A stretch of DNA of 64,000 bases, taken from the IMG/VR virus record IMGVR_UViG_3300008262_000045, positions 4,710-68,709 of that record; one strand, 5' to 3'. The position numbers were made by a program, and so were the translations under genes. Numbering within the stretch: position 1 is the first letter of the stretch; the number at the start of each line of letters is the position of its first letter. Source of the stretch: a virus. The notes below the pieces were generated by a model. The model did not search any database, was not told where the DNA came from, and saw only the letters and a program-made list of their open reading frames with translations. Of this stretch, positions 1,850 to 28,800 are shown piece after piece.

Positions 1850-1854
1850 AAAGA

Positions 1855-4842: not shown

Positions 4843-7800
4843 ATGGGAATACGAAACGACCTTGAATCGGCCATGCGTTCGGGAGACAGCATGGGAGTAT
4901 CTAGAATCCGAGACGAAGCCTCATCCTACGGGCTTACGGATGTCATGCGGCAAGCGGAACGCAATCTCCGTGAAATAGAAAAGAACAACGCCCGTGCCGA
5001 GCGTGAACGAATCAAGGGGCAAAAGGCTATGGAGCGCGAAGCCGCTCAACAAGCCAAGGATGCGGCCAGCAAATACAAAGAAGGCGCGATTGCATTCTTT
5101 ACGGAAGGCACAGGAGCAAGTCGAGTAGTTAAACCTATTTCCGCCCCGTCAGGTGGCGTGATGAAAAAATATAGCAAGAATGGCCCATTGTGGGATAGTA
5201 TTTCTGGCTTGCCATACGCCCGCAACGAGGTAGACGGGCAGCTAACACAAATTGACCCACTAAAAGACGGCAAGACCGTTGTTAAAGATGGCCATGTGTA
5301 CAAAGTTGTTGACGGCATGGCTTGGGAATGGGCGGGATTTGACCCGAACGCTATTGGTAACGACCCTGCGCTTGCGAAAGAACTAAAAGACAAGGCTGCA
5401 GAGCTAAAAAAAGAAAGCGAGCTAGCAAACAGCGAGATGGCTCTATTGAAGAAAGATATTGCCAGCGATGAAAGCAGGCTCCGCGACCTTGAGAAGCAAA
5501 AGAAATTAGCGTCAGGCGATGAGTACAACCGACTGCAAGGGGAGATTGACAAGCTCAAGAATGGAATTACTGGGAAGAAAGACAAGTTAGAACTGGCCGA
5601 GATTGAATCCTACAAAGCATTGGCTCGGCGCAAAGAGTTTGACCAACAATCCGATCAAAAGCTGGCTCAAGACTTGGCAAACCGCAAGCAACTGGCTTAC
5701 ACAGGCGATCCTAAGGGAGGGATGGGGGTGGATAGCGCGATTGCTAGAGGGCAAAAGGCGCAGCAACTTAAAAACTCATATAGTCCCGAAGATTTGCTCC
5801 ATGAGATGATAATGGGGAATATCAACCCTGATGGAACAAAAGGGAAAGGGTTGCAAGGTCTTATTGACGGTGGACTTCAACGCGATTCCATGTACTTGAA
5901 TCAGTGGGGGCAAGCAGTAGACAAGGCTAATGCTCAAAAGCGGGATGCTCAACAGAAAGAGTGGGCGCAAAATAAATCAACTCAAGCTACTCTTGATCTT
6001 GTTAGAAGCCAAAAAGATATCAAGCTAACAGGCACAAATGACAAAGGTCAACCAAGCGGGATGCTCAATGATCCCAAGATAAAGCCAGAACTTAAAACTA
6101 AAATACAGGACTTTATAAACAAGACAGGGCTAACATCAATCCCTGCATCCTGGCAAACCCAAGAAGCTCAAGAGGCCCGCGCCAATGCCGGGCTTTATGG
6201 ATACTACGATGTTTCCGTCCCAAAAAACTTTACACTTAAAGACGGCAAGATCACTACCACCAAGGAGGAACCCGCCAGCATTTGGGGGGTTGATATGCCG
6301 TGGAATACGAGCAAGGAGGTTAATGTAGGCACATATCAATTTGATAAGAATGGCGTTCCGTTTATCGAGCTTGATAAAAACAACCGCCTCTCCCCCTCGC
6401 AGTTATCCGGCAATCCCCTTGATGGAGTGAAGGAGTATATGCCCATGCCTGATAATTGGGTCAGCAATTTTATTCCTAAAGACCCGAGTTCTATCAAAAC
6501 ATTCAAAGACCTTGATACGAACACGCAGAAATCGTTGATGGCTGACTACAATAAAGAGGTATCCAACTATCAACAGACAGCAAAGGACGCTTGGGCGGGG
6601 CAGAAGATGGACGCTGGCCGGGTTCGCGACACGCTAGACCGATGGACAGTAGCAACGCCAGCGCAACGCCAAGAAATGATTGCCGAGCTTGATCCTCGAC
6701 AAGCCAAGATACCAGCCGCAGATCGACGCCTTGACACCCGCGCTTTGTTTGAAGCTGGAGTTATCAGCGCACAAGATGGACGCTTGTTTGAAAAGGCATT
6801 CTATGGAACAGAACCAGCCATGCCTAATGTCAACGAGGCATGGGAGGATTGGAAATCAAGTAGCGCAAATGGGCAGAAGTACACCGCAACAGCTTCCTCT
6901 ATTGGTGATTCTACCCTAACAGGGAATTTGCTTAATCTACTGCCAGGGTCAATAGCAAAAGTTGGGGCCAAGTTGTTGCTGGATAAAAGCGCACTTGGAA
7001 CTTTAGTGAGTGCCGATGCAAAGGCCAGACTCACAACGCTTGAAGCCGACGCTAAGCAGAACTTCCTGACAGACTACTACAAAGAAAACTCTCGGCGTGT
7101 TGATTTTGATGACAAATCATTTACGCAGACCCGCAACGCCATGTTGAAAGATGTTCCGATAACGGAATGGGCCAACAAGGTGATTGTTGATTTAGCGTAT
7201 GGAGTAGCCGGCCCCGCAGTTGGCATGGTTGGCGGCACGGTAGCGTTAGTTGCGGATGCGGCAGTTGATAAAGTGAATCAAGTGCTTGGCTCAAATAGGA
7301 TTGATTTGCTTAACGACAAGGAGCGGAAAATAATAGAGACTCAAACCTCTGCTTCATTGCGGAACATGAGCATGGCGGTTGCTGATCGACTTGAACCGCT
7401 TGCTAAGGTTAATGCAATGTTAACCCCAGGAACCGGCATGGTTATGGCCGCGCTTGGAGCGTATGATAAAAACGCACCCTCTGATTTATGGAACGGCAAA
7501 ACTGCCGGACAATTAAACCGCAAGCTAGACGGGCTTATCAATGAAATTGATAATGGCACTTTGACAGAAGCAAAGTACGCGCAGTACGACAAAGAAATTA
7601 GCGCGCTTTCCAAAGCGTTTAACGATCAGAGATCAAAGGCGAGTGGATGGATGGGGGGATGGGACGATAAGGCTGGCATCAAGCTAGACTACGAAAACAG
7701 CATCTCAAATCCAAAGTCTGCAATGGCTCAATACATTGCGGCGTACCAAGAAACTCGCGACCCAAGGCTCTCCACATCATTAAAGGGGGCAGCATTCAAC

Positions 7801-10800
7801 TCGCAAGCAGAGCTTGAGATTCAAAGGGCAGCAAGTGATTATGCTACGATGAACGGGCAGTTAAATGAAACTGTACCATTCGGAGGATTTATGTCGGCTG
7901 TTCGCGGGGGGTATGTCGCTCCGCTTACTGAGCAGGGGATCGAGTTATTAACTAACATTGCTGGCGTTGCAACCGGTGGCGCGCTATGGGGCGTCAAAGC
8001 ACTAGGCACAACAGCTAAAGCCAGCTCCGCATTAAACAAGGCCGCAAAAGTTGTCAATGCTTTAGAAGACGGGGCCGGGGTTGTTGGTGATGCTTTCCGA
8101 GGGCTTGGCAAGATTGAAAGACAGCCCGGAGTTAGCCTTACAGACGGGCAAAAGTTATGGAATACCAGCGTTGATCTAACAAAGCAATACACGGTATCTG
8201 GCGGTGGAGAGTTCTTCCAAGAATCTATTGCCGCATTTGGCGAGGCCGGGGCAACCGTTGGCGACGCTCTTAACCAAGGATTTAGCGGGTTGATCGGCGG
8301 CGTTGGAATGTCAGCAGTTCACGGAGGAGTGGGTTATGGGCTGAATACTATTACTAGCGGCATCAAGCAGGCGAAACTTGAACAGGCCCAAACTAAAACG
8401 CTGACAAAATTCGTAGAGGACTACAACAAAACCAATACATCAGGCACTCCGCTAACTCTTGACGAAGCAAGGCAAGCACAAGCCTATCAATCGCCTGCAA
8501 CCGTTTCTATGTTGCAGAATCAGCGTAAGGACTTGATCACTCGGTTAAGTAATGTCAATGCCGAAATCAAATCCCTGCCTCCTACTCCAATAGCACCCAA
8601 AAACCCCACCACCCCAGGTAAAGTGACAACCCCTAAGTTGGCCACTCGCCGGGAGACACTGCTTAACGAAAAGAATCAGATCGAAGGCCAGTTGGCCGCT
8701 AATACGCTCGACACGGTTGTTATTGGCGAAAACAGCTTCACGATTGCGCGGGAGATCAACAAACTGCCAGAGCAACAGCGCGCACTAGTTGATGCAACTA
8801 TTCGCGCCGCTAATGGATCACCGCTAACCGAACAGCAAGAGAACCTTTTAATCAATCATCCTACCAAGTCAGGCAGTCCAGCAGCATACACCTACGGAGA
8901 GACGAGCTTTGACTTTGTGCTGTCTGATGAACTGCGAGCGGAGATCAAGCAAATTGCGCCCGAGACAGCTAAAACCCCAGCGATTCGCAAGACACAAGCT
9001 GAGCGTGATGCCGAGTTGCGGGCCAAGTACGGCGGCGTCTTTAGGTATATCAACGGCAAGCAAATATTTATTGCAGACAAACCGCAGGGACAAGAGGCGG
9101 CAACTCCCCAACCGCAACCTAAGCCTAAACCCAAGGCTCCCCCGCGCTTAAATACTGACAACATGACGCCGCCAGTGCAAAAGCCGTCAGCACCAGCAAC
9201 CTCAATCCCGCAACGGGAAAATCCAGCGGAGCAAGCCCCTACTCCAATCCAAGTCACGCCTACTGTAACAGAGAACTTCCAAACGGAAGACGGGCAAGAA
9301 GCCACCGGCACATTTGAAAAGCAACCCGATGGGAATTGGCAACAGACTAGCCCCGAGGCTCCAACTTTTACCATCACGCCTGCTGACACGCAGTTCTACC
9401 AAACCCTAGAGGATAAAGCGGCTTATGCGTTAAACCCACAGTCACCCGACCCTGTACAGCCCGGCGAATACAAGCAAGCAGGCTATACCGCAATTGAACC
9501 CGCGACAGCATCGACCCCAGCAGATACCGCGATCAATGTCCAACCAGCTCAAGCCGACTCTGTTGAGCCAGCAACGCTTGTTCAGCCAACAGCGACAGAC
9601 CCAGCCCTAACACAACAGCAATCCCGACCCGGAACCCCTGATGCTGTCAATACAAGCAGCCAAGTATTGCCGCCGCCGATACCTGCCGAAGCATACTCGC
9701 CGCAAGTTTTCATGCAGCCTGTAAATCGCGGTTCAGCATTGCTTATGCTTCAAACTGCCGCGCCGTGGGTATCCTCTGCTCCGATTGTTGTTCGCTCTCC
9801 GCGATTCTTTATCAATAGCGCCGGCAACAAGGTTATTGACGCCGAACAACACGCAAGCCTGCCAGCTAATGAGAAGGCTGATTACAGCCCGAACCAAGGC
9901 GCTATGTTTGCGTTGGATGGTAAAATCTATGTGGATGAAGCCGCGCTAGTCGATTACATCAATGCCACGGCTCCCGAGTTGAGGCAGGACAAGCTCAAGG
10001 CCGCATTGCGCGAAGAAGTTATTCATGTCGCCACTATGAATGTGCGTGACAGCAAACAGATTTCCGAGGATTGGAATATGTTGCCTGACGAGGCTAAACG
10101 CCGCGTCATTGAAACATACTTCACATCCGACTTGGAACGAGCCGGAGGCGATTGGACACAAGTCGAAGTCCCCGCCTTTAATGCAGGAGCGGAGTTCTGG
10201 CGCATGTACCTGAACGCCGTTACAGAGGGCCGCACCACAGAGCAAGTTGATTTGCTCACAGAGGTAGCCGAATACGCAAAGACAAACCCCAGCTTTGCCG
10301 CCAGGATCAAACAGGCACTAGAAGACATTGCGCGTTGGTTGCGCGAGGAACTTCTAAGCAATCTTGACCCTGACGCCCGCGTTCAGTTCGAGCAAGCCGC
10401 ACAGAAAATCGAAGCGGAGGTTGCAAGACTTGAGCAGGAGTTCGGCATGACCAACGCAACTGCGACGCCGGAAGCCGAAGCTGCTTCCCCGATGGCATCG
10501 CCTGTGGTAGAAGCCAATGCGCCTCCGGCTCTCCCTGCCGAGACAATCAGCACAGAGCCTGTCACTCTACCTGAAAAGCCGAAGCCAAAGAATCAGGCGT
10601 ATGTGCCTAAACCTGCCATTGGATCATCCGCATGGAAGCAAGAGGCTGTCTACACCTCATTAACTGGCGGGGCCGCAGCGTTTGGCTACAAGATAGTTGA
10701 TACTGGCATCGCTAGCCCGTTTGAAGCCTACGGCAATACGCTAAATTGGGGTACACAGCTTTACGACAAGCTCAACCCTGGCAGTGAGATCGGGCAATGG

Positions 10801-13800
10801 ATCGACGCCATGAACGCAGGCACAAACCCAGCGGGCAACGCTATTATCCAAGCGGCCAGCGAGCCGGGCTTGCATCGCGTGTGGTATGGACATGATTTCG
10901 CGACAAACTTAGACAATGTGGTTGCCGAGTTTGGCTGGACAGCGGTTCCTGAATTTATCGGCCAGCTATTGAAAGACAGCCTTACCAAGAGCGGCATCCC
11001 CTTCCCCGGCGTGGAGCTTTTGGTTCAGTCCGGCGCTGTCAGTGATCGTACTGCAACTGATTGGCTCTCCACTAACATTGGCGAGGTATTCGGAGGCGGA
11101 CTAGCGTTCCTTGGGACATACAAGCTCTACAAAGCAGCCAAGGGCGGCAAGTTGTCTAAACCCCAGGTTCTTTTTGCCACCGTAGGCATTGGACTAAAGA
11201 TGGTTTCGGGCGTGATGACCGCGCAACCATTCTTGGTACTCTCGGGGCTTGCCGATACCGCGATCCTTGTAACGAATCTGGATCAAGTTAAGTCTGCTTT
11301 CCAAAAGGGCATCAAGGAGTTCAACAAGAAGCCCAAGGCTGTTCGCGACCTTTACGAGCAAGTTGCTCCGCCGGCATCTTCCCCTACTCAACAAACTTTA
11401 CCGCAGGATGGACAAGAAGTTAAGTCGCTAGGCTCATATCCTGGAAACGCGGGTGCAAATCCCGCTCCTGCTACCAATCAAGGCATTGAGGCCACGCCTC
11501 CGCCGCTCCCGCCAGAAACATTCGAGGCTTTACCACCGCCATTGCCGCCTGAAAGCCGCACCGAAGCCACCCCTCCCCCGCTCCCAAGTCAAGAGGGTGA
11601 AGTTGCCGCACCGGCAGAACCAAAGATAAAGATGAAGCAGGCGGCAGATCGCCTTGGGATTACACCAAAGGAACTGCTTGTGCTGGCGCGAGGCGGGACA
11701 ATCCCAGCGCAAAAAGACGGGAGCAATTATCTATTCAGCCCAAGCGACCTAACTGCTTACGCAGATAAATTGGCGGCAAAGACAAGCGACATTGCTACGA
11801 AACTGCAAGCCACGGACGCCAATACAGCGACGAGCAAAGATATTGATTCGCTTAAGAATCAGGGCTATGTCGAGATGCGGCGTGGTCAGCCGGTTATCAC
11901 GGTCAAGGGGTATGATCTACTTGCTAAGCAGGGAGTACAGCCAAGCATGACCCGCAAGGAGCGCATCGAGCAAATCGAGGCGGAGTTTAATACGCAGCAA
12001 TCCGAGAAAGCGCCCGAGATCGAGTTGCATCCACGGGTTAACAAGCAAGGGAGGTACTATATTGTTCCTGGGCCAAACGGATCGTTGGCCGCGACGATTA
12101 GTGACGCAGATGATGCCAAAGCGAGAGAGAAGGCTAATCAAGTTGCGCTGGAGTTTGAGGCGAGAGAAAAAGCCATCAATGATGAGCTTGCAGCGGAGCG
12201 GGCCAATCAACAGCAGCCGGAATCTCAAGACGAGTCTACTGATGCAAGTCTTGTCCCCCAATTCAAGAAGGCATTGATGCAGAAGATGAAAACCATCTCT
12301 GACTTGCGAGATCAAGAGAAGTTGACACCAGAAAGCAATAAGACGCTTATCAAGCAAGTTGCCGAGGTTGCCAACAAGTTAGGGATGCAAGAAACGCACC
12401 CCGGATCATTGCTGTTGAATTTCAGTACGGCTCCAGGGTTGCTGATGAAACGACAAGCCGACTTGATTACAGCGGTTCACGGAATGATGGAAGGGCAGTC
12501 TATCTCGGTTCAGCCTGTAGAACTAAATGCCAAGGGAGGCAAGGGAAGTCCTACCGAGCTAACCGGCCTAGAGAACAGGACGCTTTCATGGGGTGAAATG
12601 ATTTTGTTGGGCGCAATGGAAGCCAAGCCTATGCCAGATGGTTCCCTTGAACTGACTCTTGGCCAATCAGCCGTACAGATTAAAGAGCGGTTAACTCAAG
12701 AGGAAGCCGAGGCCGCTGAGCAGGAGTATTACGATGAATTAAAGGCTGAGCTTAACATTATCTCGGCTGGACAAGACGCAAGCCCAACAGGCCGAGAGTT
12801 GTTGGATGCTATTGAGGAAGCCGGCGGACTTCCGTCACCCAACAGCGAAACAGAGCAAGAGTTTACCGGCGAACTAAAGACGCTATGGGAAAGCGCAGGG
12901 GCTATGGGCAAAGGGGCTTACGCTGGCAAGGGAGTATTCAGAAACAATATATTCCGACTGAATGCGCCGCCACTGGATAAACTGGCAGCACATCTCCGTG
13001 GCCACGGGTTCTCTGTTTGGGGAGCAAACGACATTTTTGAACTGGTAGATGCAAGGTTTCGTTCAAACAAGCCCATGTACGGGACTTCATGGCAGGATGA
13101 TGGCGGCTATCGTGCGGTTGCCAGCAAGACGCCACGCAAGGTTGTTTCTTGGGATATCCCAACGAGGAACACAAACACAGAGTATATCCTCAATGGCCTG
13201 ATTGCTGGCCGCGGCCAACCCGTAGGGATGTTTATTCCAAACTTCGATGCTGATGGCAACTTGATGGCCGATACCCTGCCAGCGGAGGGAGATATTGAGT
13301 TCAGGCACTTGGATGCACCGCTTGGAAGTGAGAACGAGTATCTGACCAAGGATCAAATGCGTGAGTTGATGGAGATTCGCGCAACAGACACAAGGTTCTG
13401 GAATCGCAACTCATTCGAGATTCGTGAAATCAGGTATGCCGATTCTGATAAGGCGTTTAAGAAGACAGACAGACTCCAGATGCCCGAGCGCCAAGTTACG
13501 CTTTCAAACGCCGTGGTTTCAGAGAAGCCCGGCCCTGTATTCATCAAGAAAGCCTACCACGGCACACCGCACAAGGTAGATCGGTTCAGCACATCCAAGG
13601 TTGGCACAGGCGAAGGAGCGCAAGCCTTTGGATGGGGCTTGTACTTTGCCGAGGCATGGAAAGTCGCGCAGTCCTATCAAGACAGGTTGTCGGATTACTC
13701 ATCCCCTGGACGCTACACATGGCAGGGCAGCACATACGAGTCAGACAACTACAAGTCGCCAGAGCGTCATGCCGTGTCATTGGCTTATCACCAAGGGTTG

Positions 13801-16800
13801 CCACAGACCAAAAAGATTGCACAGCTTGGACTCCGCGATGCCAAGAGGGGCGAGCCTTACGCGATTGAGCAAGGCGGTATCCCTTACTATGAGCGGATGT
13901 TGGAAGTTGCGCGGTCTATCAAGTCACAGAAGGACATTGGCTTTGTGCAAGGCAACATCTACTCCGTGGAGTTGAATGTAGATAATGCCGACTTGCTCGA
14001 TTGGGATGCGCCTATATCGAAGCAATCAAAACAGATTAGAGCTTTCTTTGAGCCTGTATTGGCAAAGCGCAAAGAAGAAATGGAATCCAAGAGTAGCATC
14101 TACACTACTCCGATTGATGAAACGATTAACAACGCCACAGGCGCAGAAGCCTACGGATGGCTTGCCTCCGCAACGCAGTTAAATAGCCAGCAAAAGGCAT
14201 CAGAAGCGTTGGCCGCAAACGGCATCATGGGCATTCGCTATCTGGATGATGGAAGCCGCGACATCCCAAAGATTAAATGGAATGCCTACAACGGCTTTCG
14301 GATTGAGGCTCCCGGCTCAAGGACTCTCATCGAGGAAGGCACAACGAAGGAAAATAACTTGTATGCGTATGTTTGGCCCGCAGGGGAAGGCAACTGGAAG
14401 GCATCGTATGAATCCAAGGCTCCCGGCGAGGTTGTGGACAACCAGTTTGGGGAGTTTGCCAGCGAGAGCGAAGCCAAGGCCGCGATTGCGGACAGGTTCA
14501 AGCAGACATCAAACTTTGTGATCTTCGATGAGAACTTGATTCAGATCATCGGGCAGAACGGAGAGCCGGTTGGCAACGCTAGTGTTCTATCAGCCAAGCC
14601 TACCGCCGCACAACTTAAAGCCGCGCAAGACTACACGGCCCGCAATGGAACCAGCGCAGGAGCCGATATCGTTGCCCAGCAGGTTGCTAATGTGACATCG
14701 CCATTCCGTCAGGACACATATCAGCTGGACTTGTTCGGGGATCGTTCACCTATTGAACCAGAGAACGCGCCAACGGAAGTTGAGGCAGACGAATACGCCT
14801 TGCTTCTTGAGTCAGGCTTCAAGGGGAATTGGGAGGCTCTCGGTAAGGTGATTGCCAAGCAGGGCAAGGCCAGCGTGATCATGCCAGAGTTGATCGACTC
14901 CAAGATTCCTGCATGGAATCCCGTAGGGACGCTTGTTGAAAAGCCGGCTGACTTCGCCGCGCTGATGTTGCCGATCCGCACACCGTATCACGAAATGCTG
15001 AAGGTGGCGATACTGGATGATCAAAACAAAATCGTAGCCGCGCAGATTGTTAGTGTTGGCAGCGTGAATGAGACTGTTGCTCACTCGCAGAATATCTTGG
15101 GCTTCTTGTCGCGGTATCGTGCAATGAACCCTGACTCCGACGAGCATCGGATTATCATTTCGCACAACCATCCAGGGGGCGATCCTACACCATCACCGGC
15201 AGATTACAGGGTTCAGAAAAGTTTTGAAAAAATTGCAGACCTATTGGATTACACCATTGCTGACCATGTGATTACAAATGGGAAAAGTTATTTCTCATTT
15301 AAGACCGAATCAACTAACCAATTGGAAGAGGATAATGCGGCGTGGGAGAAAGTCAGCATTTCAGATTTGCCTACTCTTAATTCCAGCGAGCAACTCGCCA
15401 AATTGACGCAATCGCTGGCTCAATCCAACCCGAACGCATCGCATATTGTTTTCTACAACACTCGCAATCGCGTTATTGCCGTTGAGCAATTCGACCCGGA
15501 TGTTCAAGTTGAAACTGATCTTGGGCTATCTGGCTCGCCGGGGAGAGATGGTAACGGCGGGACAGTAGTGTTGGCACAACAAGTCTTTGATCGTGCGGCC
15601 CTCTACGGAGCCTACTCATTCAGCTTGGCACTTCGGAATGCAGGAGATCCAAAACTTAATGAATCCGTGGCAAGCCCAACAGCTAGTCATTACCGCTTTA
15701 TCAAAGCGTTGAATGACAGCATTGAGCCGTTGCAGTTGCGTATGCTTGACGCGATTACAGTTGGAAGCAGTGACTACTTCTCATGGCGCGAGGCTGGGTT
15801 ACTGAGAGAGACGGATGGGCAGTCCCCCATGTTTGCGAAGTCACGCCCGACCTCCCCTCACCAGCTTGATCTTTTCAGCAACAATTACAATGCGACAGCA
15901 ACGCCTTGGACTCCGAGTTGGCAGAAGGAGGAGGCGCAACAGACGGAATCCTCCGACGCCGCGCCAGAGGATGGGTTGAAGTTGGTAACTCAAAAGCCAA
16001 CCGGGATAATCGAGGATTTCGGCGAGAAGTTAGAAGGCGCACGAAAAGACATTTGGAGGCAGTATACGGATGCGCTTATGGCCGACCTTCCAGAGGACGC
16101 CCGCGAGATTGTCATGTCCAAGCACTTCCCCGAGCCGGACTATGAGGCAATGATTTTAAGCGGCATGGAGCCGGAGCGCGTAGCCGCGATGAAAGCTCTC
16201 CGCGATCTTGTCCCAAGGAAACCCACTCTTGGATACAAGCTCCGGCGCTGGACGGAAATGGTTGGGCAGATTCGCGGCATTGTGCAGCGGTTGGTTGATC
16301 CTAAAGACTCAATCACGATGGAGCGGTTCAATGAAATCGTGAATAGAATCAATTTCCGCGAACTTCGCGATGCTGCTGATTTTTATGCCGCGCTTGGCTT
16401 CCCGTATTTTATGAAGGCCAAGGGCTGGAAGCTCCGCCAAAGTAGCGAATATACTCGCTGGAACGGACAGCCGCTCGAAAAAGGGAAAATCGTTTCCCAC
16501 ATGGAGCAAGAACACCGGGCGTTTACCAATCTTTCCTCTGTTAATAATGATGGAGATTGGAAGCAGGGCTACAATTCCGTTATCCAAAAATTCCGTGAAT
16601 ACCTAGACGCGCAATCAGAAGCTCCGAAGGGAGAATCCAAGATCGACTTCAAGTTCTACAAAGACCGCGCAACCGGCGAAGTCTTTATCGGTAAGAAGGG
16701 CTTGAGCGGAGTGATCCGTATGCAAACAGGCTTTACCGGCGTGAAGGAAGCCATGGCTTGGTTGGCAGACAACTACAATGAGCTTGCCCTGAAATGGGAA

Positions 16801-19800
16801 GGGATGAAAAAAGACCCAGCCTTACGCCGCGCCATTAACGATCCAAGAAGCGGCCCGACTCGCCGTGAGGGAGATGTTACGCCGGAGCAGTTCAGCGAAG
16901 CCTTTGGATTCCGAGGAGTCCAGTTCGGAAACTATGTCGAAGGTGATCGCCGCCAGAAAGACCTTAATAACGCCTTCGATGCGTTCATGGACATGGCCGA
17001 TGCTCTTGGCGTCCCTGCTAAAGCTCTATCCCTAGACGGCTCTTTAGGCTTGGCTTTCGGAGCAAGAGGTACAGGAGGCAAGCGCCCTGCCGCCGCACAT
17101 TACGAGCCTAGCCAAGTTGTCATCAATCTCACCAAGAACGCTGGCCCAGGTTCCTTGGCGCACGAATGGTTCCATGCGCTCGATAATTACTTTGCCCGCT
17201 TGGAAAAAACAGGCAGCACCGCGCCTAAAGCAATAGATTCCTACGCAACAGAGAATCTAGGACTACGCGCCGGCATAATGATGAACAATCGCGGCGAGGT
17301 TGCCGGATACAGGTCAGACGCTCAAAATGTCCGGGCTGAAATTGCCGAAGCCTTCCGGGGCGTTCGTAATTCCCTTGGCGGCGACTTGGATGCCAGAAAC
17401 CGCAAGCTCGATGCCGCACGATCCAAGCCGTATTATTCCTTAACGATTGAGAAAGCGGCCCGCGCCTTTGAAAGCTATATTGTTGATCGACTCGGTAAAA
17501 CCAGCATCACGAACGACTACTTGGCGAACATTGATCCGTTCTCGGAGGCATACCCAACCCAAGCAGAGTTGGATAACGGAATCCGGCTGGCCTATGACAA
17601 CCTCTTTACCAAGATGGATACCCGCCAAGGTGAGCGTGGAACGATGTTGTTTGCCAAGACACGCGGCTTAAAAGCCATCAACATCAATGACACCGATCAG
17701 GACTTTACCAGCCAAATTTTGCGTGGAGAAAAAACCATCGAAACCCGTCCGACACCTTCACTCTCGCCATATATCGGCGAGCGCGTCGGCTTGATTAAAA
17801 CGCACGATAACTCAAAAAGATTCCCTGCTACCTTGGTTGGCTACGCGACTATTGGAGAACCAATATTCTACCCAGACGAAGCCAGTTTCCGCGCCGACGA
17901 AGACAAGCACTTGGTTAAAAAAGGCACATTCCACGACATTAAAGAGGGAAGCGGCAAGTATGGATACCCACTCCTCGATGTGCAAACAACCGCGCCTACA
18001 GAAATGGGCGACGCTCGCGGCATTGTAGCAAGGAATTTAGATTCCGTTTTTATGCGCCTCGCGCAAAACCCCGAGGCCAACCGCGAGCAGTTACAGCAGA
18101 TGGTGGATGAGGCGGCGAAGAATAAGGGATACAATGTTAAGGCTTATCATGGAACAGACGCTGCTCCATTTTCAGAATTTGATCCCAACCTTTCTGGACA
18201 AGCAACAGGCATAGAAAGTGATTTTTCTTTTCATTTTACAACAGATAGAGATCGGGCAAGTAGATATGGAGAACGAGTCATGGAGGTCTGGTTGGATATT
18301 CAGACTCCGATGGACATAAATATTAAAGACAGGACAAACAAGGTTTGGAAAAATTATGGATTGCCTGCGCCTAGACCTGGAGAATCAATAGACACATATT
18401 ACGATAACAATATTGAAAAAATAACAGATTCGCTTTTCTTTGGACAAGAAATAGATATTATTATCCGCGACAACAACCATGCACATTTTGTGGTTGGAGA
18501 CAATAAAGCAATCAAATCCGCCGATCCCGTCACCTACGACGCCAACGGCAACATCATTCCGCTCTCCGAGCGTTTTAACCCTGAAAGCGAATCTATCCTG
18601 TTTGCCAAGGCTCGGCCAACACAGGATAAAGGCTTTTATCTTAAAAGCGCGGAATTGCTGGACGCGAAAATCCAAGGGAAACAAGCGACGCTGGAGCAGG
18701 TTCAGGCGCTCCTGCAAAACCCTCAAAATGGCATCAAGGCCGAAGAATTGAAATGGACGGGCGTAATGCAGGAAGCCGAGCGCCTAGCCAATGAAAACAA
18801 CGGCAATGTGCCGAAGGAAGACTTACTCGATTTTCTTGCCAAGGATGGCGCGGTGGAGTTGCGTGAAGCATTCTTTGGAACGCTTGCACCAACCACGCCT
18901 GCAACTCGCCTTGGGGTAGCCAATTTGGAAGGCAAATTCATGCAATGGGCCGATGGGCTAACCTCGGAAAACATCAAATCCATTGAGGATGTTGGCTTCA
19001 CACTTCAAGAATTTCCATCAGATATTGATCAAGTTGCAAGTGAAGCCAGATTTTCTCAATACCAACTCCCTGGTGGCGAAAACTACCGGGAGGTCGTGCT
19101 GGCGATGCCGCTTGATCCAATTAGCGAAAAGGGAAAGCGCTGGCAATTTATAGATCAAAGGCTTGATGTACTTAAAGAAATGGCAAAAGAGCTTTTGCCG
19201 CTAGAGAGTGTTGACCCAATCGCAAAAAAGAAATTAGCGGAAATAGAAGATGAGTACGCCAATTTGGCCGACGAGATGGCGTCTATACCAATCAGAGAAG
19301 CGCAGGTCACCTCAAGTTACACATCCTCTCACTTTAACACCCCTAACTACATAGCCCACATGCGCCTCAACGAGCGCACAGATGCCGAAGGGAATGAAGG
19401 CTTATTCATTGAGGAATTGCAGTCTGACAGGCATCAGGCAGGCCGACGCCAAGGATATGGTGAAACTTTTGCAGTGATGACGCCGCGACCTTTAATGGAA
19501 GGCGGCGGCAAAAAAGAGGTTGCCTCTTTTGACACACGCGCCGAAGCGGAAAGCTATGTTTCGCAAAATCGCTCACCCCTCAATAATCTTCAAATTGTTG
19601 CCAAATCAGGCATCCCAGACGCGCCGTTCCGCACAAGCTGGCCTATTCAACTTTTTAAACGCGCATTGCGTGATGCGGTTGTATCAGGAAAAGATTGGAT
19701 TGGTTGGACTGACGGCGAGACGCAGAACGATCGCTATGATTTAAGCAAAAGCGTGGACACCATCGAGGTTGAAGCGAGGGATGGCGCGTTCCACGATGTG

Positions 19801-22800
19801 CGAATTTTCGAGAAGTCCGGCAGCGTCATCGACTTGGAAGTTGATGGAGGAATGGTCAAATACGGACAATTCGCAAACAAGCGATTGGATGAGATTATCG
19901 GTAAAGACATGGCGGATAAAATCCTAGCCGTGGAAAACGACACCGCTGCTGATTTTTCCGGCATCGACCTCAAAGTCGGCGGCTCCGGCATGAAAGGCTT
20001 CTACGACAATATGGTTCCAAAGGAAGTCGCCAAGTATGTGAAGCAATGGGGCGGGAAGGTCGATAAGTCTTCAATAGGTCAAGAGATAACCGAAAATGAC
20101 TTGGGAATGGAAGGTCTTGAAGATGCAACTCCAGAAGAGTTAGCTGAATTTGAAGCAACTGGTAAAGTTGTAGGAGAAACTGTTCCAATCTGGCGCGTGG
20201 ACATCACCCCGCAGATGCGCGAAAGCGTGGAGAGCGGCCAGCCGCTATTTGCAAAAGCCCGCCCAAGCGCCCCTAGCAGTTCGCTTCCGGGCAACTATCC
20301 AGACACCCTGGATATTGTTGTTCGCGCCACCAAAGTTGCCAAACTACGATTAGCTGGTTTAAAAGAAGGAGAATCCACAGTCCCGCTTGACCCTTCTCCT
20401 GTGCAGGCTGGCAGGAGTCCAGACCTAACGCCAGTTAGCCCATTGTACAAAGCGGCGAAGCACGGAAGTAGCATGAGCGCGGCATTGGATATTGCTGAAA
20501 TGTTTGCGACTGCCCCGCTGGTTGAGTCGATTAAAGAACGGCTCTCTCCCGACAAGCCGGTTGTTTTTGTGCCGGTTCGCCATTTTGATCCAGGCCTTTT
20601 CCATAACGCCCTTCCTGGTGCGTTTGCGACTGTATTAAGAGACAGAATCCCAAATAGCACAGTTGACACAAACATTCTTAAATCAGGAGGAATGTCCAAT
20701 ACCAGCGTTTCCACGGCGCAACGCATGGGCAACACCCAAGAATTTACCGGCCCCGTCGATCCCGATGTTCAGTATGTCATCGTTGACGATGTTTATACCA
20801 GCGGCAACACAATCACCGCGCTGATTGACCATATCGTTCGAGCTGGCGGCGAGGTTGTCGCGGCAACAACGATTGCTGACAGCCAATCGCAAAATTATCT
20901 GAAACCCCGCCCGCAAGATGTCACAAAACTTCTTGACCGGTCCGGGTTGATAAGTGAATCATTCCAGAGTGAAATTGGATTCCCCATCGAAGCCCTTACA
21001 GGAAGCGAAATCTATCGAATCGCTAACCTTGAACGAAACTGGACAGGCTCCGCGTTTATCAAGGAAAGATTTTCAAAGCGATCTGGAATTTTCGCAGAAC
21101 GAAGCCGTCTGGATGCAGAACGAAATGGACAGGCTGATGTCCCTGCGGCGCTCAGCGTCAAATCAAGAAGCGTAGCTGAGATTCCAAATATCAACGAACT
21201 GCCAGAAGGCATCACGGTATTTTCAGGTGCGGGCCTTGTTGAAATCGGCCTGCAAGGGTTGGTCACTCCAACTTTCGCGGTAGAATATAATCCCGCAATA
21301 GCGCAAGCCTATCGCGCCGCGTGGGGCGACCATGTACAAGTTGCCGACATCCGTTCCGTTTCAATGGATGGACAACAAGGGAAATTCTATTATCACGCTT
21401 CCCCTGTCTGCAAAAACTCTTCGCTACTAAAAAGCGAATCAACGGGCGGCGGCGAAAAAGACTTGGACATTGAATCGGCTCGCATTGTTGCAGAACACAT
21501 CAAGACGATTCAGCCGCAAGTTGTCACGATTGAGAATGTCGCCGCTTACAGGAAAACAATAGCCGCGCAAGCCATCCGCGACGCGCTAAATGAGCAGGGA
21601 TATACCTTCGATGAGGGAATCTACAACGCCGCCGACTACGGCGCACCAACGGCACGACGCCGATATTTGCTTCGAGCCATTAAAGGCGGAGCCTTGTTGC
21701 CAGAAGCAACGCCAGTAAAAGGGCCTGGCTGGTATGAGACAATCAAGGATATTATTGATGAATTGCCAGACGATTCGATTGAAAATGCGGCATACATCAA
21801 GCGTTCATTGCCGGAGCAGGGAGTTGATTTAGAAAACATCACCGAACCGCTCTTGGTTAGCGGCACGACGCTATTCAAAAAAGTAGCGTTCGCTAGACCG
21901 ACACAGCCGGCGTTTACATTCAAAGCAACGCCTGCAACCGTTGATCGAATCCTTTTGCCAGGAGGGCGGGTCAAACGAGTAACCGCAAAAGCCAAAGCTC
22001 GAATGACCGGCGTTCCCGATTCCTTCCCATTGCCTACTGACGAAAAGGTAGCTCTGACAATCATAGGAAATGGCGTCCCTCCCGCGCTTGTTCGCAATGC
22101 TTTTGGCCCTGTGATTGAATATGCCCGGACACGCCAAGCTCAACAGCCTCTTTTCGCGAAAAACTCTGCTCGGTCTATGCGTGGCGACACAACAGGCGAC
22201 CTGTTCGGAGATCAGACGCCGTTTAATCTTGTTGGCGAAATGTTGCCGCCGGAGGCTCCGGCAAAGCCTGATATTGTCGTTGATGCACAGGCTCGCCAAG
22301 AAGCCTTCCGCAAGAGCGGGCAAGAAGATGTTGGCGATTTGTTTGCGCCGGCATCCGCCGAACGCATCGCCGCCACCGCTGTCATTGACAAAGATGGGGT
22401 TGTTTTGAGTTCACCTTCCAAAACTCACGCGGAGATAATGGAAGAAACAAAATTTGATCTCGACGGCGGAGAGTTTCCGCCTACGCAAAACTTTGGTTTT
22501 GTTACTACAAGTGGCCGTTTTGTGGAGCAAAAAGAAGCCCAGCAGATCGCGCAGCAAGCGCGGCAGGTTCAAGGCAATCAGCCGATCTCGGGCGAGATTG
22601 TCACCGAGTTGCAACGCGAAGGTTTGCTTGCGCCCGCGCAGAAGCCCGCCCCTGCAACTTTGCCAATCAATGAAGAGTTTGGCTTCACTCAAGAGATTGA
22701 TGCCCCAATAGAAAAAATCAAAAACAACATGGTTCGCTTTGCTTCCGGCATGAGCGGATTAAGCGACCTCGGAGCCGCAACCTATGTTCGCGGAGGTATG

Positions 22801-25800
22801 CAAAATTACGGGGTTGGATTTGATGTTGGCTTGCTTTCAAAAAACGCAATAGATTTGCTTGCTGACAGGATTCTTTTCCTAGACGCACAGGTTTTTATTG
22901 ATTCAGGGGCTTTCAGCCATTTTGTCAAAAATGAAAAACTAAAAGCCGAGGGTAAAAAAACATTAGCGCCTTTGGACTTCGATAAGATTTTCAAAAAGTA
23001 CGACGCGATTACGGAAGCCATCTACGAGCAAAACAAAGTAGAAGCAGACTATCCTCGCCCGCTCATGGTTATGCCTGACATTATTGGCGACCAAAAGGCA
23101 TCACTATTACTTACTGAACAATACAAAAATCGCATTGCGATTGAGACAGCGGTAAATACATTTACCCCAATCATTCCTATACCGCTTGGCGAATTATCTC
23201 TTTCACAGGCATATAGTAAAATTATTGAGATACTAAAGACTAATGCGTCAGGAATAGAAATTGATCCTGCCAAGTTCATTGTTGGTATTCCGTCTAACGC
23301 GCAAGCCGTGAGCAGGGAGCAACTCGCTGAGTTTTTGCGTGAATCCAAACCACCCCGCATTCATTTCCTTGGCGCGGCAGCAGACATCAATATTAACCCG
23401 TTGCTCGCGGTTGTCGCTAGAACCGCCCCGGATACGATTGTTACGGCGGATGCCAGCAAGGTAAGGTCTGAAATCCTTAATGGAGTGGCGGCTGGAAAGA
23501 CGCGCCAGCAGGCAATTATCGACGCATTAAATCAAGAAGATGATCCAATAAATGTTTTGGAGAATTTCAGCCAAGTAGCTCCGCTCTTTGCCAAAGCCCG
23601 CAAGCTCCGTCCTGATTGGCCGGGAATGCTAAATCAAGCAAACGACATCAGCATTCAAGAGTTTGCAGAATTGGCAAAAGATGGACGCTTGATCCAAGCC
23701 ACCGGCAAGCCAAACGAATTTGAGGCTGGTTCAGGCAAAACGCCGCTGAGCGTTGGCGCAGCCTCTGGATATTCGCTGAATGACATCGCGCATTTCTACA
23801 TTGCCCGCCAGTTGCCGACAAAATTCAAAGACAGCACCGATGCGTCACGCCTTGTAAATCAACTTGTCGCCACTAATAAAGACCCCGCGCAAAGCAATAC
23901 TGTTTTGCGGGCGTTCGATAGATTTGCCGAAGATGCCGCAAGCGAAGCGCAGGCCGTGCCGCTTTCAGCCAAGCCCCGCCCATCTTCTCTCCTTGCTGAT
24001 ACAAAAGGCAAGGTGATAGCAGGCACGGCTGTAGGCACTCGCAATCCAACTGGCAAGACCGCGCTGGAGGCTGGCACGGATCGTTCTGCTCTGGTCGATC
24101 TCGCCTCGATGCGGCGCGATCCAGAACTTTTCCGAAAAAACGCCGTGCTACTCGCCGACTTCCCGCTAGTGGCAGGCCAAGTGCCAGAGGCCGCGAAGCT
24201 CGTTCGCGACATAAGCGCCCCGCTTAAGCAGGCCCGCGAGCAGTTCGCTGATGCCAGCAAGCGACTAGAGGATGCCCGCAACGAACTCAAAGCCGAACTC
24301 GCCCGCCGCCAAGGTGTGCGCCCGAACAAGATCAAGGTGACCGAGGTGGACAAGCTGGAGAGCGGCGAGTCCAAAGTGAAGCGAACAGATGCGGTGGTGA
24401 AAGCCGCCCTGCAAAAGATCAAGGACGCCCGAAAAATCCAAGCCACCTTCGGCGACAAGCGCGACAAGAGTCAGGCCGAATTTGAGGCAAACTCTAAAGC
24501 TCTGCTTGCCGGGGATCAGTTCTCAATGGAACTCGCCGAGCGTGTTTACGATGCGCTCAAGACCTCCGCAAAGCGCAACCTAGAGCTTCTTATCGAGCTA
24601 TTCCCTGAAGACCTCCGCGACACCGCACGGCTCTGGTATGACGGCGCGAACATCATCGCGCAAGACTTCGCCGCCCGCTACAACACCACGCTCAACCGCT
24701 CCGCCGCTGTATTGGCCGTCTTCTCCCCGCAGAAGGATTGGTTTATGAATGTCGCCCTCGGCCAGCGCATGATGAACATCTGGGCCAACCACCAGGACAC
24801 GCGCTTCGATGATGCGATGGCAAAGCAATACCTCATGCGAGCCGGTGAGCCGGAGCCGCAGTGGGACAAAAAATCCGATGACTACAAGCGCGACGCCAAA
24901 GGCGAACTCGTCTACACCAAAGGCGCGAAGCCGATCCGCGACGAGGAAGGTAACATCACCGGTTGGGAAAATTGGGACAACGAAAAGGCGCAGGAGAAAT
25001 TTAATGAAGCCAAAATGGAACTTGCCATAATGCGCGGCAAAAAACTTTCTGAGCTTCCCTTCGATCTCCAAGCCCGATTCATTCGTATGTGGAGCGAGGT
25101 TTACGACGCCCCAGGCTTCCCGGTGGTTACGCCTGCCGGAACATTCGGCAACAATAAACTCTCCGAAAAAGGCAATGAACAACGCCTCGCTTGGGGTAGC
25201 TACAACACCATTGAAAAAGCGATTCGTATTCTCACCGCGCCTGAATCCTCCGAGATGCAAGTGATCTCCAACGAACTTGGCGTCCAGCACAAGGTTCGCA
25301 GCTTTTACAATAATATCGCAGACCCCGCGAATGCGGATGGTCATGTCACGATGGACACCCATGCCATCGCCGCAATCCTCTGGCAGGCACTCTCTGGCAA
25401 CAGCCCTGAGGTGAGCATGAACTTTGGAAGCGGCGGAGCCTCGGGCAACAGCAACCTCGGCATCTCTGGACTTTACCCGGCTTTTGCTGAAGCCTACCGC
25501 GAAGTAGCGGCAGAATTTGGTTTGCTTCCTCGCGAAGTTCAGAGTATTACTTGGGAAAGTGTTCGCCTGCTTTTCCCAGCGAAATTCAAGAGCCAAAAAG
25601 CCAATGTCACCAAGGTTCGCGAAGTCTGGAATCAACACGAACAAGGAATCATCACCACAGAACAAGCCCATGACCGCATCTACCAAATTGTCGATGAATG
25701 GAAACGCCGAGGCACTCTTGCGGGACAACCCGGAAGAACTGCGGCAGATGCAATTGCAGATGGTTCAGGAGTGGGCAGACCAGACTGGGCAACAATTACC

Positions 25801-28800
25801 CGGAGCGGTGACAATAATTCTGAACTATCGCAAGCGCCCGCTGACGCAGGAGGACTACCTGACCGCGGACGGCGGGGGGATGGAACTGGACGATCTGCTG
25901 TCGGACGACGAGGCGCTGGCCGAGATGCCGGACTTCTTTCTACAACTCCCAAGGGGAGACAGCCCAGGGCTGTATTAGCGGCCAAGCCCCGCAATACTCC
26001 GCCTCCGATGCCTCCGATGGAGAAGCGAATCGAGGCGAGTCTGGATGCGATTGAAAAGTGGAACGACTTTTTGCGAGCCGTTGAAGAAAAGCCGGCTGGT
26101 TCGTTGAAAAAATTCGCAGAGGAAATTAAAGCGAATACCCCGCAAGATATTTGGCGCGGGTATCAGACGATCTTCCGTGGCCGATTAGATGTTGCCGATT
26201 CATTGGCTCCTGGCGTAAAGGCAATTTTACTGGCATCGAAACAAGAGGAAGCCCTAGCGCAAATTGGCATTAACGCAGTGGTTGACGGACTTCGACGCGA
26301 ACTGCAAAAGGCTTTTGGCGATCCTGCATTTTGGAACAAAAACCGCGCTAGATTGAAAGAGGCAACCCGATTGCTTTTGCCGATTGCCAGCTACCTACAA
26401 CCAGAGCGTCCAGGTGTGGACGGCGGATTTGATTGGCGCGAATTTGAGCGCCGCGCTGGAACGATCAGCCAAGTGGAAATTCGCAAGATGCGACTGAAAG
26501 ACGGCCAGTGGTTTGAGTATGATGGGAAGACATATCGGCTAGGCGAATTTTTGCCGGATGAAAAAGCCTATGTGCTTTTGGAGCCGGTCAGCGTGGAAAT
26601 GCAGCAAGCTATTTACGAAGAGTTTTGGTCAAACTTTCCCGAGGCTTTGCCAATTCTTAACCGCTGGATTACGCCAGAGTTGAAGGACGCATACACAGTT
26701 GGTCTTGGCGGAACAATGAGCGTTGAGTTTAACCGCGAAGCTCTCCTTTCGTTTATGAACGAATGGCCGCAAGATTTGAAAGAGGCTTTCGGAGACATGA
26801 CTCTACCCTCGGTTCCGCGACTTGAAGGCTATACGCCCGACATTGCGGCACAGCGCAGTATCGTTGCTGTTATCGCGAAATTACTTGGGCTTTACAAATC
26901 CCCTGGCCGCAAGTTTAAGACCGGCGCACTTCGCGAGGCCGGCAATGTCAAAAACTTGATTGATGGGTTTTCGACCCGCGCAATGGAGGCACACCGCGAA
27001 AAAATTCGTATGCGGACGCGGCAAGGCATCATTGAAAAAGCCGTTGTTTTTAGAGAGGATGTTCCAGCAGAAAACATAGGTGACTATGTAGCCCTCGAAG
27101 ATGTTTTCAGTAGCATCGTAAAAGCCGTTCAGTCCGCAAGACTGCTGGATGAAAAGGCATACCCAAACCTTTCAAAAGCCCTAAATCCAAAAGACCAAGT
27201 TCAACTCATGCGTCTTGTCGGAGATGCCGCGAGATTAAATGGCATTGAGCAAATGGTTCACAAAAATGTTTATCGCGAACTCATGTTGAGCATGGCGCGG
27301 GCGCAAACCGAAGGAATGCTTTTACGCGCTTTGAACTTTTTGTTGCGCGGCGCAAAGTTAGGAAAATTAACAGCCGGCTCCGTTGGCATAAACTGGCTAG
27401 GAAACCAAATCCTTACGCTTACACAAGCGATGAACAGGATGTTTGCCGGCATGACGCACTTGGCGCTATTAGACTCAAGGGGAGCAAAAGTAAATACCCT
27501 GGAGGCTCTTTTCTTATTGAGAGGGCTTATCACAGATCGTGCGCCAAACACGCTAAACCAATCGCGCATTGGCGACTTAATCCCTCGCGAGCTTTTTGAT
27601 AGCACAACGGCCCTGTCTAGCCTCGATGCAGGCGCAGACTACGGCAACTTGGTTGATGACATTAAACGAAACGGCATTCTCCGGGGGCCAGCACAAGGAC
27701 TTGTCAACGCATTCAAACAAGGAGGAATCAGCGCAAGTATTCTTTATGGCGTACACTACTCTGGTGGCGACGCCGCCGTAAAACAGCAAAGTGCATACGC
27801 GGCATACAGAGCGCGTGCTGAAATTGCGGCCAACGAAGCCAAGATTAAAAGCGGCAGATCCGAATGGATGCGAAATTGGATACAACAGCAAGTTCGCGAA
27901 AATACGGAAATTCATCGCGAGGTGATGGATGCGGCCAAGCTCTATTTCATGGATTATGAAAATGTCCCCGCATGGCTCGATCCTTCATCCAGCTTGCCGG
28001 AAGAAAAGGCTAGAAAATTCTTAAAAGAACACGGCCTATGGTTCATCAAGTACCCTTACAATTTCATACGGTTTGTAAAACGGCTTGGACTTGATGGTGC
28101 TATTGAGTTTGCGTCGCCATCCTCGACAAAACAAGAACGGGCGCGTGGTTTGGCCAATATGCTTACGATTGCGGCGGTTGCTTACGGCGGCTCCGCCTTA
28201 CTATCCGGCGGTGAAGATGATGATGATATTATTGGCTCGCGCTTTGATGAAGAAGGGAAACTTAAAGACCGCAACCAAGATACTAGTAGCCGCATGAACC
28301 TGTCGGCGATTGGAAGGAAAACGCATCTAGGACGAGTTATTGCAAGCGCCCTTCGCATGGCAGGCGTAAGCATTAACGACGATCTAACAAATCATCGAGG
28401 CGATGATTATTGGATGTATTACCAAAATATGACTTGGATGAAAGAAAGCCTTTTGATGGGGCGGGCAGTTAATGGAGACTATCAAGGATTTCTGAAGGAT
28501 TCAGGAGCGTACATATCCGATTTGACGGCGATGGGTATTTTAAGCCGCATGATGGGTCTTGCTAAAGTTGGAAGTATTGATGCCAAAAAAAGCCCTGTAA
28601 ATTTAGCTACAGAGGCATTCTTTGAGGCATTAAGTTCTCCGGTCAATCCATCAGCGTTGACAAACTATATTGGCAACATGACTGATCCAATTGTTCGCAG
28701 AACAACCAGCAGCGCAAGTCTTGGATTTAATATGGGGCCGCTGGAAAGCATTATGGCTGGAATCCCTGGACTTCGAGAAAATCTACCTGCCGCAGGGGAG

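Follow-up and report, generated by a model that had tools for sequence, protein, structure and literature searches.

Polyvalent proteins combine unrelated effector or enzymatic domains, several to a polypeptide, and are thought to be a main route by which phages and conjugative elements deliver anti-defence enzymes. A metallopeptidase (MPTase) hub has been proposed to process them into units; the main text of that study, supplementary alignments aside, mentions neither a junction peptide nor a site of cleavage (Iyer et al. 2017, PMC5512222). In a full-text literature search on polyvalent proteins, LPD5 and LPD1 the only other relevant work was a preprint on the Shiga toxin (Stx) phage phi24B. 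Its authors detected gp47 in virions by mass spectrometry, proposed an ejection role for it and assigned its metallopeptidase to peptidoglycan degradation, not self-processing; the preprint text available likewise describes no junction peptide (10.64898/2026.04.10.717836). Here we consider a giant polyvalent-protein gene on a 64,000-nucleotide stretch of DNA (hereafter the window), bases 4710-68709 of the IMG/VR virus record IMGVR_UViG_3300008262_000045, which is 68,709 bases long with a CheckV completeness of 100.

The gene is one open reading frame (ORF) of 8159 residues that sits among the virion and late genes of a phage. Its product has Pfam matches to HTH_17, ART-PolyVal (twice), RadC/JAB, LPD5, LPD1, Pribosyltran, C5 DNA_methylase and DUF7178, so that several unrelated domains lie within one ORF, and this domain signature places it among the phage-type polyvalent proteins (Iyer et al. 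2017, PMC5512222). Peptides of the form L-[FSAG]-A-K-x-R(P) recur along it. On balance, we favour the idea that they are recognition and cleavage sites of a zincin metallopeptidase embedded in the same protein. The polyvalent class and the idea of processing by the MPTase are already published; what is new here, as read from sequence comparison, is the family-wide tie of the peptide to the C-terminal junction of the zincin, together with its co-variation within proteins.

A repeated peptide in the giant protein

An earlier note on this DNA had listed ten copies of the peptide and a weaker one, VASKTPR. All of them are present where it had placed them, inside the single ORF and within residues 2759-7045 (Table 1); none lies in the 2758 residues before or the roughly 1108 residues after. 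In 500 residue shuffles of the giant protein LFAK, which occurs five times, was expected 0.15 times and reached a maximum of two. The pattern [LM][FSA]AK.R was observed seven times against 0.10 expected (maximum two), and the loosest pattern, [LM][FSA][AV]K.[RST], 11 times against 0.30 (maximum three). In a count free of any pattern, AKAR (six copies) and LFAK (five copies) were the top non-trivial exact 4-mers, and six copies were reached in none of 300 shuffles. A chance origin of the motif is ruled out by these tests. The 11th match of the loosest pattern, LAAKTSD at 11770, adjoins the end of the HTH_17 match; neither of the near relatives described below, G004 and G005, has a counterpart of it, and it is probably a chance match. 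A BLOSUM 'hub' motif finder was swamped by proline-rich and tryptophan-containing windows and did not single out the motif in this lineage; exact 4-mers and a junction-hexamer test were used instead.

The loose pattern gave 13 matches in all ORFs of at least 50 residues in the 68,709-base genome, 11 in the giant ORF and two in spurious-looking ORFs of 60 and 87 residues. Among the ORFs so scanned, the capsid, scaffold and portal proteins and two large upstream proteins are all without the motif.

As the earlier note had also remarked, codons vary among the copies, with leucine encoded by CTA, TTG, CTG, CTC, CTT and TTA. Because the codons differ, and because G004 and G005 retain L, A, K and R while position 2 varies, selection appears to act at the level of the peptide. 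Two other origins were considered and set aside. Homologous recombination at the motif DNA is not credible since the copies are too short and their codons too different, the shared letters being only those that the peptide forces. For ribosome stalling or 2A-like skipping, the likeness amounts to a proline, and the peptides are wholly different among lineages.

The peptide follows the LPD5-LPD1 block throughout its family

Among named phages, relatives of the giant protein are confined to residues 3718-4272; the 221 records are mostly from Stx-converting phages, and none reaches 60% identity. The alignments to gp35 of Stx2 phage 86 and gp57 of Bacillus phage Dartukuta, which read GVA-FYSRKGV and GNVLLFSFAGK at the junction, end at the motif. 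A HMMER search with residues 3880-4290 against 1.84 billion representatives returned 5494 hits, the best 150 of which were used, 149 being mappable. Nearly all of these best 150 are giant proteins, and the matches end at query residues 390-398, the position of the motif. Directly after LPD1, 125 of the 149 carry a hydrophobic residue followed by F, Y or H. The column counts are L90/M21/F10, F72/Y48, S77/A14/Q12 and R48/K18, and the family consensus reads ...ETKETDKGVA-L-[FY]-S-[RK]. Since an aligned junction peptide is carried by this many relatives, LFAK is, on the alignment, a local dialect of a family-wide peptide placed after the zincin block.

Co-variation was assessed in 123 family proteins of at least 1500 residues, including the giant protein, by seeking the hexamer that follows the zincin elsewhere in the same protein. 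With a BLOSUM62 score of at least 22 there were 35 self matches against a permuted mean of 5.6 and maximum of 18, a total reached in 0 of 5000 permutations, although the compared proteins are related, so that the permutation counts overstate independence and do not give a true probability. With the lineage of the giant protein left out, these 35 matches against 5.6 became 29 against 5.3. At a score of at least 20 the count was 65 against 16.2, with 26 of the 65 extra copies upstream of the zincin. The dialects include LFSRRA/LFARRA (P0005), LFSSAS (P0009), L[YF]ALDP (P0118, P0078), L[HF]TSELPK (P0014) and L[YF]ARR[DEG] (P0015). Modules of the same type wear the dialect of the protein in which they stand, the ART module ending ...PLSxRF[ND]Pxxxx and an unnamed 549-residue module ending ...ITPEMxxxxxGQx ahead of it.

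Most of the 80 viral loci L062-L141 share a common plan of about 1300-1900 residues, the zincin, the junction peptide and a further 1100-1340 or so residues, to which the C-terminal 1108 residues of the giant protein correspond. From this arrangement the richer proteins look like the common plan with cassettes inserted at the junction.

The LPD5-LPD1 block as a predicted zincin

The block carries HEWFH at residues 4107-4111 (nucleotides 17161-17175), H228-E229-W230-x-H232 in block numbering. In an alignment of 61 sequences no variation is seen at H207, H228, E229, W230, H232, E324 or E331, and at least 90% have D235; in protein numbering the residues outside the HEWFH core are His4086, Asp4114, Glu4203 and Glu4210. 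An HExxH with a conserved downstream glutamate, as expected of a zincin-like metallopeptidase, is therefore present, and one of the two glutamates would be the zinc ligand. Phage-type MPTases are described in the main text of Iyer et al. 2017 (PMC5512222) as having a histidine where strand 2 ends and an aspartate three residues after HExxH, and the block matches both features. HEWFH is the one canonical HExxH in each of the three lineage genomes.

An AlphaFold model of the block has a predicted local distance difference test (pLDDT) score of 87.8 and a predicted template-modelling (pTM) score of 0.82. In a VIA-align structural scan zincins made up four of the best five matches and a majority of the first 30. 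Top of the list was the anthrax lethal-factor catalytic domain (Z 9.7, root-mean-square deviation 4.0, 181 residues aligned), with the putative metal hydrolase 3dl1 (Z 8.4) and the Pro-Pro endopeptidases PPEP-2 and PPEP-3 (Z 7.9 and 7.6) also matched. The likeness to these M34-type enzymes, lethal factor and the PPEPs, is in fold only (12-14% sequence identity, Z at most 9.7) and has no bearing on shared targets. Foldseek found nothing in the PDB at E of 0.001 or below, and its weak rows are zincins. The LPD5...LPD1 block is predicted to be one zincin, and because the structural matches cover model residues ~130-390 and so extend over Pfam 'LPD1', LPD1 is the C-terminal helical part of the predicted peptidase. 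The lethal-factor catalytic domain, PPEP-2 and PPEP-3 are endopeptidases that read an extended linear peptide. Judged by its conserved residues and its model, the block is a credible, intact candidate for an endopeptidase of a sequence-specific type.

The giant protein has a second zincin-like segment, EEVIH at window 10012-10026 (residues 1724-1728), in which the first zinc-binding histidine is missing. It is kept in all three lineage genomes, and MAFFT aligns it with the HExxH (at residues 650-850) of an N-terminal zincin-like region in eight distant relatives (L008, L010, L013, L015, L016, L018, L019 and L020). By its sequence the region is either a zincin that has lost its first metal-binding histidine or a variant site. 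A hidden Markov model (HMM) of the N-terminal zincin region recovers only the sequences from which it was built plus L012 and L014, with none in L007, L009, L021 or L022; the giant protein was itself included in the building, so the HMM is not independent for EEVIH. The earlier note had suggested that the peptide is cut by the zincins of the protein itself, whether EExxH or HExxH. For the HExxH enzyme this is strengthened by the position of the motif directly after the block, the co-variation and the conservation at peptide level; the EExxH region, which lacks the first histidine, is a less certain candidate.

Module boundaries and near relatives

No Pfam match spans a site. When the ten fragments delimited by the sites were scanned separately, seven held a Pfam family and three were without a match; the RadC/JAB match is strong (1.5e-25 in the giant protein, 4.6e-29 for the fragment scanned alone). 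Homology breakpoints were taken from 126 BLAST high-scoring segment pair (HSP) ends against all fetched relatives and clustered into 29. Nine of the 11 sites have a breakpoint within 20 residues, against a mean of 3.4 for random sites in residues 2700-7100 (P = 0.0013), and the largest clusters (24, 23, 8, 7, 7 and 6 ends) are all at motif sites. These two results bear out the earlier description of the motif as lying in linkers between modules. Around the 549-residue module, an AlphaFold model that took in both flanks (mean pLDDT only 60.8, from a 19-row alignment) puts the two LFAKARP copies in its only terminal segments with pLDDT below 50, which fits exposed linkers. The MFAKSRP copy stands 55 residues ahead of the LPD5 part of the zincin block.

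A portal-based scan of IMG/VR gave ten loci, from which two complete genomes, G004 and G005, were compared. Their portals are 80-81% and their capsids 87-88% identical to those of the present genome, and their giant proteins are 7033 and 7150 residues long. Each has seven sites matching L-[FGAS]-A-K-x-R-[PRQ] despite a different set of modules, and the variants ILGAKPAR and VAAKPRV stand at two sites where the copies of the giant protein are weak. At one and the same junction position 2 varies among F, G, A and S, as in MFAKSRP, LGAKPRQ and LAAKPRQ, with L, A, K and R constant; the motif persists at orthologous junctions of proteins that are 50-70% identical overall.

Gain, loss and relocation of modules take place exactly at the motif, so that the label 'domain-shuffling signal' given to it by the earlier note is apt as a description. 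In G004 the end of LPD1 is joined directly to the phosphoribosyltransferase (PRTase) module, residues 4275-5128 of the giant protein being missing, and G005 has other modules in their place, as well as an extra module before the last site. A 105-residue sub-module (window 22324-22638, residues 5828-5932) that starts GDLFA has an 86% identical copy in G004, which follows the next module there instead of preceding it and ends LFAKSRP. Residues 5941-6244 (304 residues, window 22663-23574, no Pfam match) are 84.5% identical to L038 and L039; since the other shared parts are only 31-35% identical, this points to the recent transfer of a single module between lineages. An insert of about 110 residues directly after VASKTPR (window 13138-13482, residues 2766-2880) is absent from both G004 and G005, a gain or loss exactly at a site.

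Distant relatives use other junction peptides

A scan with the 549-residue module found 26 loci, all inside large ORFs. Homology to the module ends just ahead of the motif, and where the giant protein has GQP-LFAKARP the relatives have GQP-SFSIG (L009, L024), GQM-RFMPEG (L011-L019), GQA-LFMPD (L008), GQS-LFAPSG (L007), GQA-LFAAN (L021, L025) or GSP-MFAAAP (L026-L030). Each lineage reuses its peptide at other junctions of the same protein. There are five copies of SFSIG (4-mer SFSI; five reached in 0 of 300 shuffles), five of (N)AASLD (AASL; reached in 1.3% of shuffles), four to five of (IL)KASGAVP (ASGA; 4.3%) and three to four of R[FAM]MPEG (MPEG; about 1%). [QM]AMPD has three to four copies, and its exact 4-mer count is not significant; neither are the exact 4-mer counts for G004, G005, L007, L008 and L018. 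Peptides that are uniform within a protein and different between lineages form the pattern that a co-evolving pair of enzyme and site would give.

An LPD5-LPD1-type zincin was not detectable in the complete relatives that use other peptides (G001 with AASLD, G002 with KASGAVP), which counts in favour of the link between zincin and motif. A Pfam search on the 4829-residue protein of L021 gave no match at all. With low confidence, we suggest that proteases have been swapped, relatives of the x-F-M-P-[ED] dialect having an intact HExxH and the present lineage a degenerate EEVIH but an LPD1-type zincin.

Proposed mechanism and alternatives

In the scheme we favour, the C-terminal junction of the zincin would be the founding copy of the site. 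Modules would have been recruited by insertion at that boundary, each effector module placed up- or downstream ending in a further copy in a disordered linker. Cutting would produce about ten enzymes, namely an ART, RadC/JAB, the zincin, a second ART, an unnamed module, the PRTase, the C5 methyltransferase (C5-MTase), two unnamed modules and DUF7178, and would also free a large N-terminal piece and a C-terminal piece. Two features of self-processing polyproteins are present, a consensus repeated at the junctions and the same consensus at the boundary of the protease itself. Zincins generally prefer a hydrophobic P1' residue, and from this preference the scissile bond would lie just before Leu or Phe. 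We infer the cleavage itself, as well as its enzyme, bond and timing. More tentatively, and as something we would not quite wager on, the thousands of phage LPD5-zincin-LPD1 blocks may all be self-processing proteases, the C-terminal junction being a co-evolving code at which cassettes are inserted.

Several observations weigh against cleavage by the zincin, besides the relatedness of the proteins in the permutation test. According to the main text of Iyer et al. 2017 (PMC5512222), the N4 vRNAP, ArdC and TraC1 are delivered without being processed in spite of their MPTases. Relatives without an LPD1-type zincin also repeat their junction peptides, so the phenomenon is independent of this enzyme. 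Most family members have a single site, with two or more extra copies (score at least 20) in only 8 of the 123 proteins. The generic pattern [LMFIV][FY][SA][RK] shows no family-wide excess of extra copies over 142 proteins, the 194 matches against 136 in shuffled sequences including about one junction copy per protein. Within residues 2700-7100 of the giant protein the motif is present at only 9 of 28 breakpoint clusters, and the mobile 105-residue sub-module has no L-x-A-K motif at its end here. In the model of the block, T-M-L-F-A of the zincin's copy forms the second strand of a C-terminal hairpin, and confidence drops only after it (block means of 92, then 70, then 57); because of this strand, that copy is predicted to be partly structural. 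Finally, 13 stand-alone LPD5-zincin-LPD1 proteins (453-503 residues) end GVA-LF[AT]KPRR plus only 3-8 residues. In these proteins the motif would release nothing; it may belong to the domain or be a tag. One of them, P0156 (474 residues; L142:9890-11422), ends LFTKPRRKML, and a 472-residue ORF upstream of it (L142:6800-8215) ends MRFGAKKKRR; the locus may represent a split form of the system in which the peptide serves as a C-terminal tail.

The stand-alone proteins, which terminate in the motif and a short basic tail, would be accommodated if the peptide were an uncut handle, a short linear motif for capsid loading, for unfolding or threading through portal and tail at ejection or for binding a host factor, with one copy per module; the earlier note had named a chaperone or ejection handle as its alternative. 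The tag-like end of the ORF upstream of P0156, the basic character of the copies (K-x-R, often with R or P next) and the uncut delivery of MPTase-bearing proteins (Iyer et al. 2017, PMC5512222) are in keeping with such a role. We nevertheless think it unlikely. Packaging would need just one handle per polypeptide, and the motif is missing from the two large upstream neighbours and from all other virion proteins of the genome. Moreover, the peptide is wholly replaced between lineages (SFSIG, RFMPEG, AASLD, L[YF]ALDP, LFSSAS), which fits a pair of enzyme and site better than a conserved portal, DNA or host target. Somewhat less probable still is cutting by a different protease, whether the EEVIH region (residues 1538-1869), the RadC-type JAB, a phage head protease that has escaped recognition or an enzyme of the host. 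The repeated junction peptides of relatives without an LPD1-type zincin speak for it, as do the retention of EEVIH in the lineage, its alignment with intact HExxH sequences and the strength of the RadC/JAB match. Assemblin-type proteases prefer (V/L/I)-x-A-S, cut between A and S, and L-x-A-K and LKA-SGAVP, divided after the A, are similar. But EEVIH is without its first zinc-binding histidine and the HMM that links it to the relatives is not independent, PHROGs and Pfam scans of 20 distinct window ORFs turned up no prohead protease family, the ORF that precedes the capsid gene resembles an acidic scaffold, and capsid, scaffold and portal are without the motif. Nor would another protease explain why the motif stands after the LPD1-type zincin in 125 of 149 proteins and co-varies within them.

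The copies might also be functionless scars, each insertion at the zincin junction having duplicated the resident peptide much as a target site is duplicated. The simplest members, with a single junction followed by ~1100-1340 residues, and the richer ones that look like insertions there, agree with this, and duplication would lead one to expect both the likeness of copies within a protein and the gain, loss and movement of modules exactly at the motif. We regard it as very improbable because neutral copies would have decayed, whereas synonymous positions are scrambled with L, A, K and R retained, and the orthologous junctions of G004 and G005 still carry the motif at 50-70% protein identity. 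The 26 of 65 extra copies that lie upstream of the zincin are also at odds with it. Cleavage by the embedded zincin thus remains the explanation that we prefer.

Genomic setting and features

Downstream of the portal gene are tail-fibre-like genes, an M15 endolysin, an acidic scaffold-like ORF of 378 residues directly before a capsid-like ORF with a weak capsid match (window 41037-43754), an integrase and a RecT/exonuclease pair. Because of this gene content the element is a temperate, probably short-tailed (podovirus-like) phage. By likeness to related virion proteins, the giant protein would travel in the capsid and be ejected together with the DNA. No prohead or head-maturation protease family was found among 20 distinct window ORFs with PHROGs and Pfam, several of these ORFs being matchless, so that they could hide one. 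Upstream of the giant gene, three ORFs of 607, 176 and 789 residues (window 26-4817) match nothing in PHROGs or Pfam. A Megablast search of 50,697 phage records with the region was negative, and a portal-based scan of genome contigs found no relative.

Table 1. Features of the giant gene and its surroundings, in window coordinates
Feature	Position	Strand	Remarks
Giant polyvalent-protein gene	4843..29322	+	one ORF, 8159 residues, directly upstream of portal gene
N-terminal ~2758 residues	4843..13116	+	without strong motif sites; colinear with G004 and G005 (52-54% identity); contains EEVIH
VASKTPR (weak)	13117..13137	+	same place: VAAKPRV in G004, FAATKPRV in G005
LSAKPTA	14587..14607	+	between ART-like and RadC/JAB fragments; LGAKPTA in G004, LSAKPTA in G005
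MFAKSRP	15829..15849	+	between RadC/JAB and LPD5-zincin-LPD1 fragments; LGAKPRQ in G004, LAAKPRQ in G005
LPD5-zincin-LPD1 block	16480..17646	+	residues 3880-4268; predicted single zincin metallopeptidase
LFAKTRG	17647..17667	+	immediately 3' of zincin block; family-wide junction, consensus GVA-L-[FY]-S-[RK]
LFAKARP	18598..18618	+	after ART-PolyVal domain 2; segment of module model with pLDDT <50
LFAKARP	20245..20265	+	after unnamed 549-residue module; 23 HSP ends at residues 5122-5154; segment with pLDDT <50
LSVKSRS	21151..21171	+	between PRTase and C5-MTase; ILGAKPAR in G004
LFAKNSA	22150..22170	+	after C5-MTase; LFAKPRR in G004, LFAKSRR in G005
LFAKARK	23584..23604	+	after 478-residue fragment without Pfam match; HSP ends cluster at residues 6243-6262
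LSAKPRP	23962..23982	+	before DUF7178 fragment; LFAKSRP in both G004 and G005
LAAKPRN	25975..25995	+	last site, before conserved C-terminal region; LGAKRRP in G004; LGAKARP and LSAKPSS in G005
C-terminal ~1108 residues	25996..29319	+	without sites; 35-87% identity across all portal-linked relatives
Portal gene	29338-31470		PF23899 SU10_portal, phrog_1216

Two linker sites are soon followed by an exact QLDLF (window 14722-14736 and 15862-15876), which is kept in G004 and G005 (AQQLDLFAD) and is the sliding-clamp-binding consensus. D/E-L-F also follows junction peptides in the distant relatives P0005, P0009, P0010, P0011, P0015 and P0076. DLF or ELF occurs within 25 residues after 7 of 188 junction-like sites against 56 of 4920 random positions, a small excess that is a hint at most. 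Iyer et al. 2017 (PMC5512222), in their main text, restrict RadC to the polyvalent proteins of conjugative elements; here a polyvalent protein of a phage carries a RadC-type JAB domain, in two matched stretches (window 14587-15828).

Comparison with known systems

The zincin-processing proposal of 2017 has so far been without a defined site; there is now a candidate site, a candidate enzyme and its catalytic residues. There is also a rule that can be transferred, which is to read the peptide after the zincin in order to obtain the code of a lineage. If the proposed mechanism is correct, this rule would dissect thousands of giant proteins into single effectors, including modules of no known family, and the exact boundaries of every released effector could be predicted from the zincin junction. 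A mode of growth for such proteins, by the insertion of cassettes at the junction, is also suggested.

In combining ART-PolyVal, RadC, LPD5, LPD1, PRTase and DNA methylase domains in a polypeptide encoded among virion genes, the giant protein resembles the polyvalent proteins described in 2017; with 8159 residues and 11 sites it is at the large end of the class. The LPD5-zincin-LPD1 block is shared with gp35 of Stx2-converting phage 86 (2783 residues) and gp47 of phi24B (2811 residues), and the gp35 block is 37% identical over residues 3723-4272 of the giant protein, in an alignment that ends at the motif. The Stx-phage protein differs in that it has just one copy at the junction and lacks the row of inserted effector modules.

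The arrangement also recalls the processing of phage head proteins. T4 gp21 cuts at L/I-x-E and the phiKZ-type enzyme at S/A/G-x-E, the enzyme in each case being a distinct prohead protease whose substrates include capsid and scaffold proteins as well. Here too a short, lineage-specific peptide would mark the cut points of capsid-loaded proteins before injection. The differences are that no such protease was recognized among the window ORFs scanned, that the candidate enzyme is embedded in its substrate and that the motif is not in the capsid, scaffold or portal protein.

Among RNA viruses, polyproteins are processed by proteases such as picornavirus 3C, potyvirus NIa and alphavirus nsP2. A repeated junction consensus, the boundary of the protease among the sites and a consensus that is lineage-specific and co-evolves with the enzyme are common to those systems and to the pattern seen here. 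If the mechanism holds, a double-stranded DNA phage runs the polyprotein strategy of an RNA virus for its injected arsenal, with candidate sites only, a protease of the zincin class and, as the products, accessory effectors in place of replication machinery.

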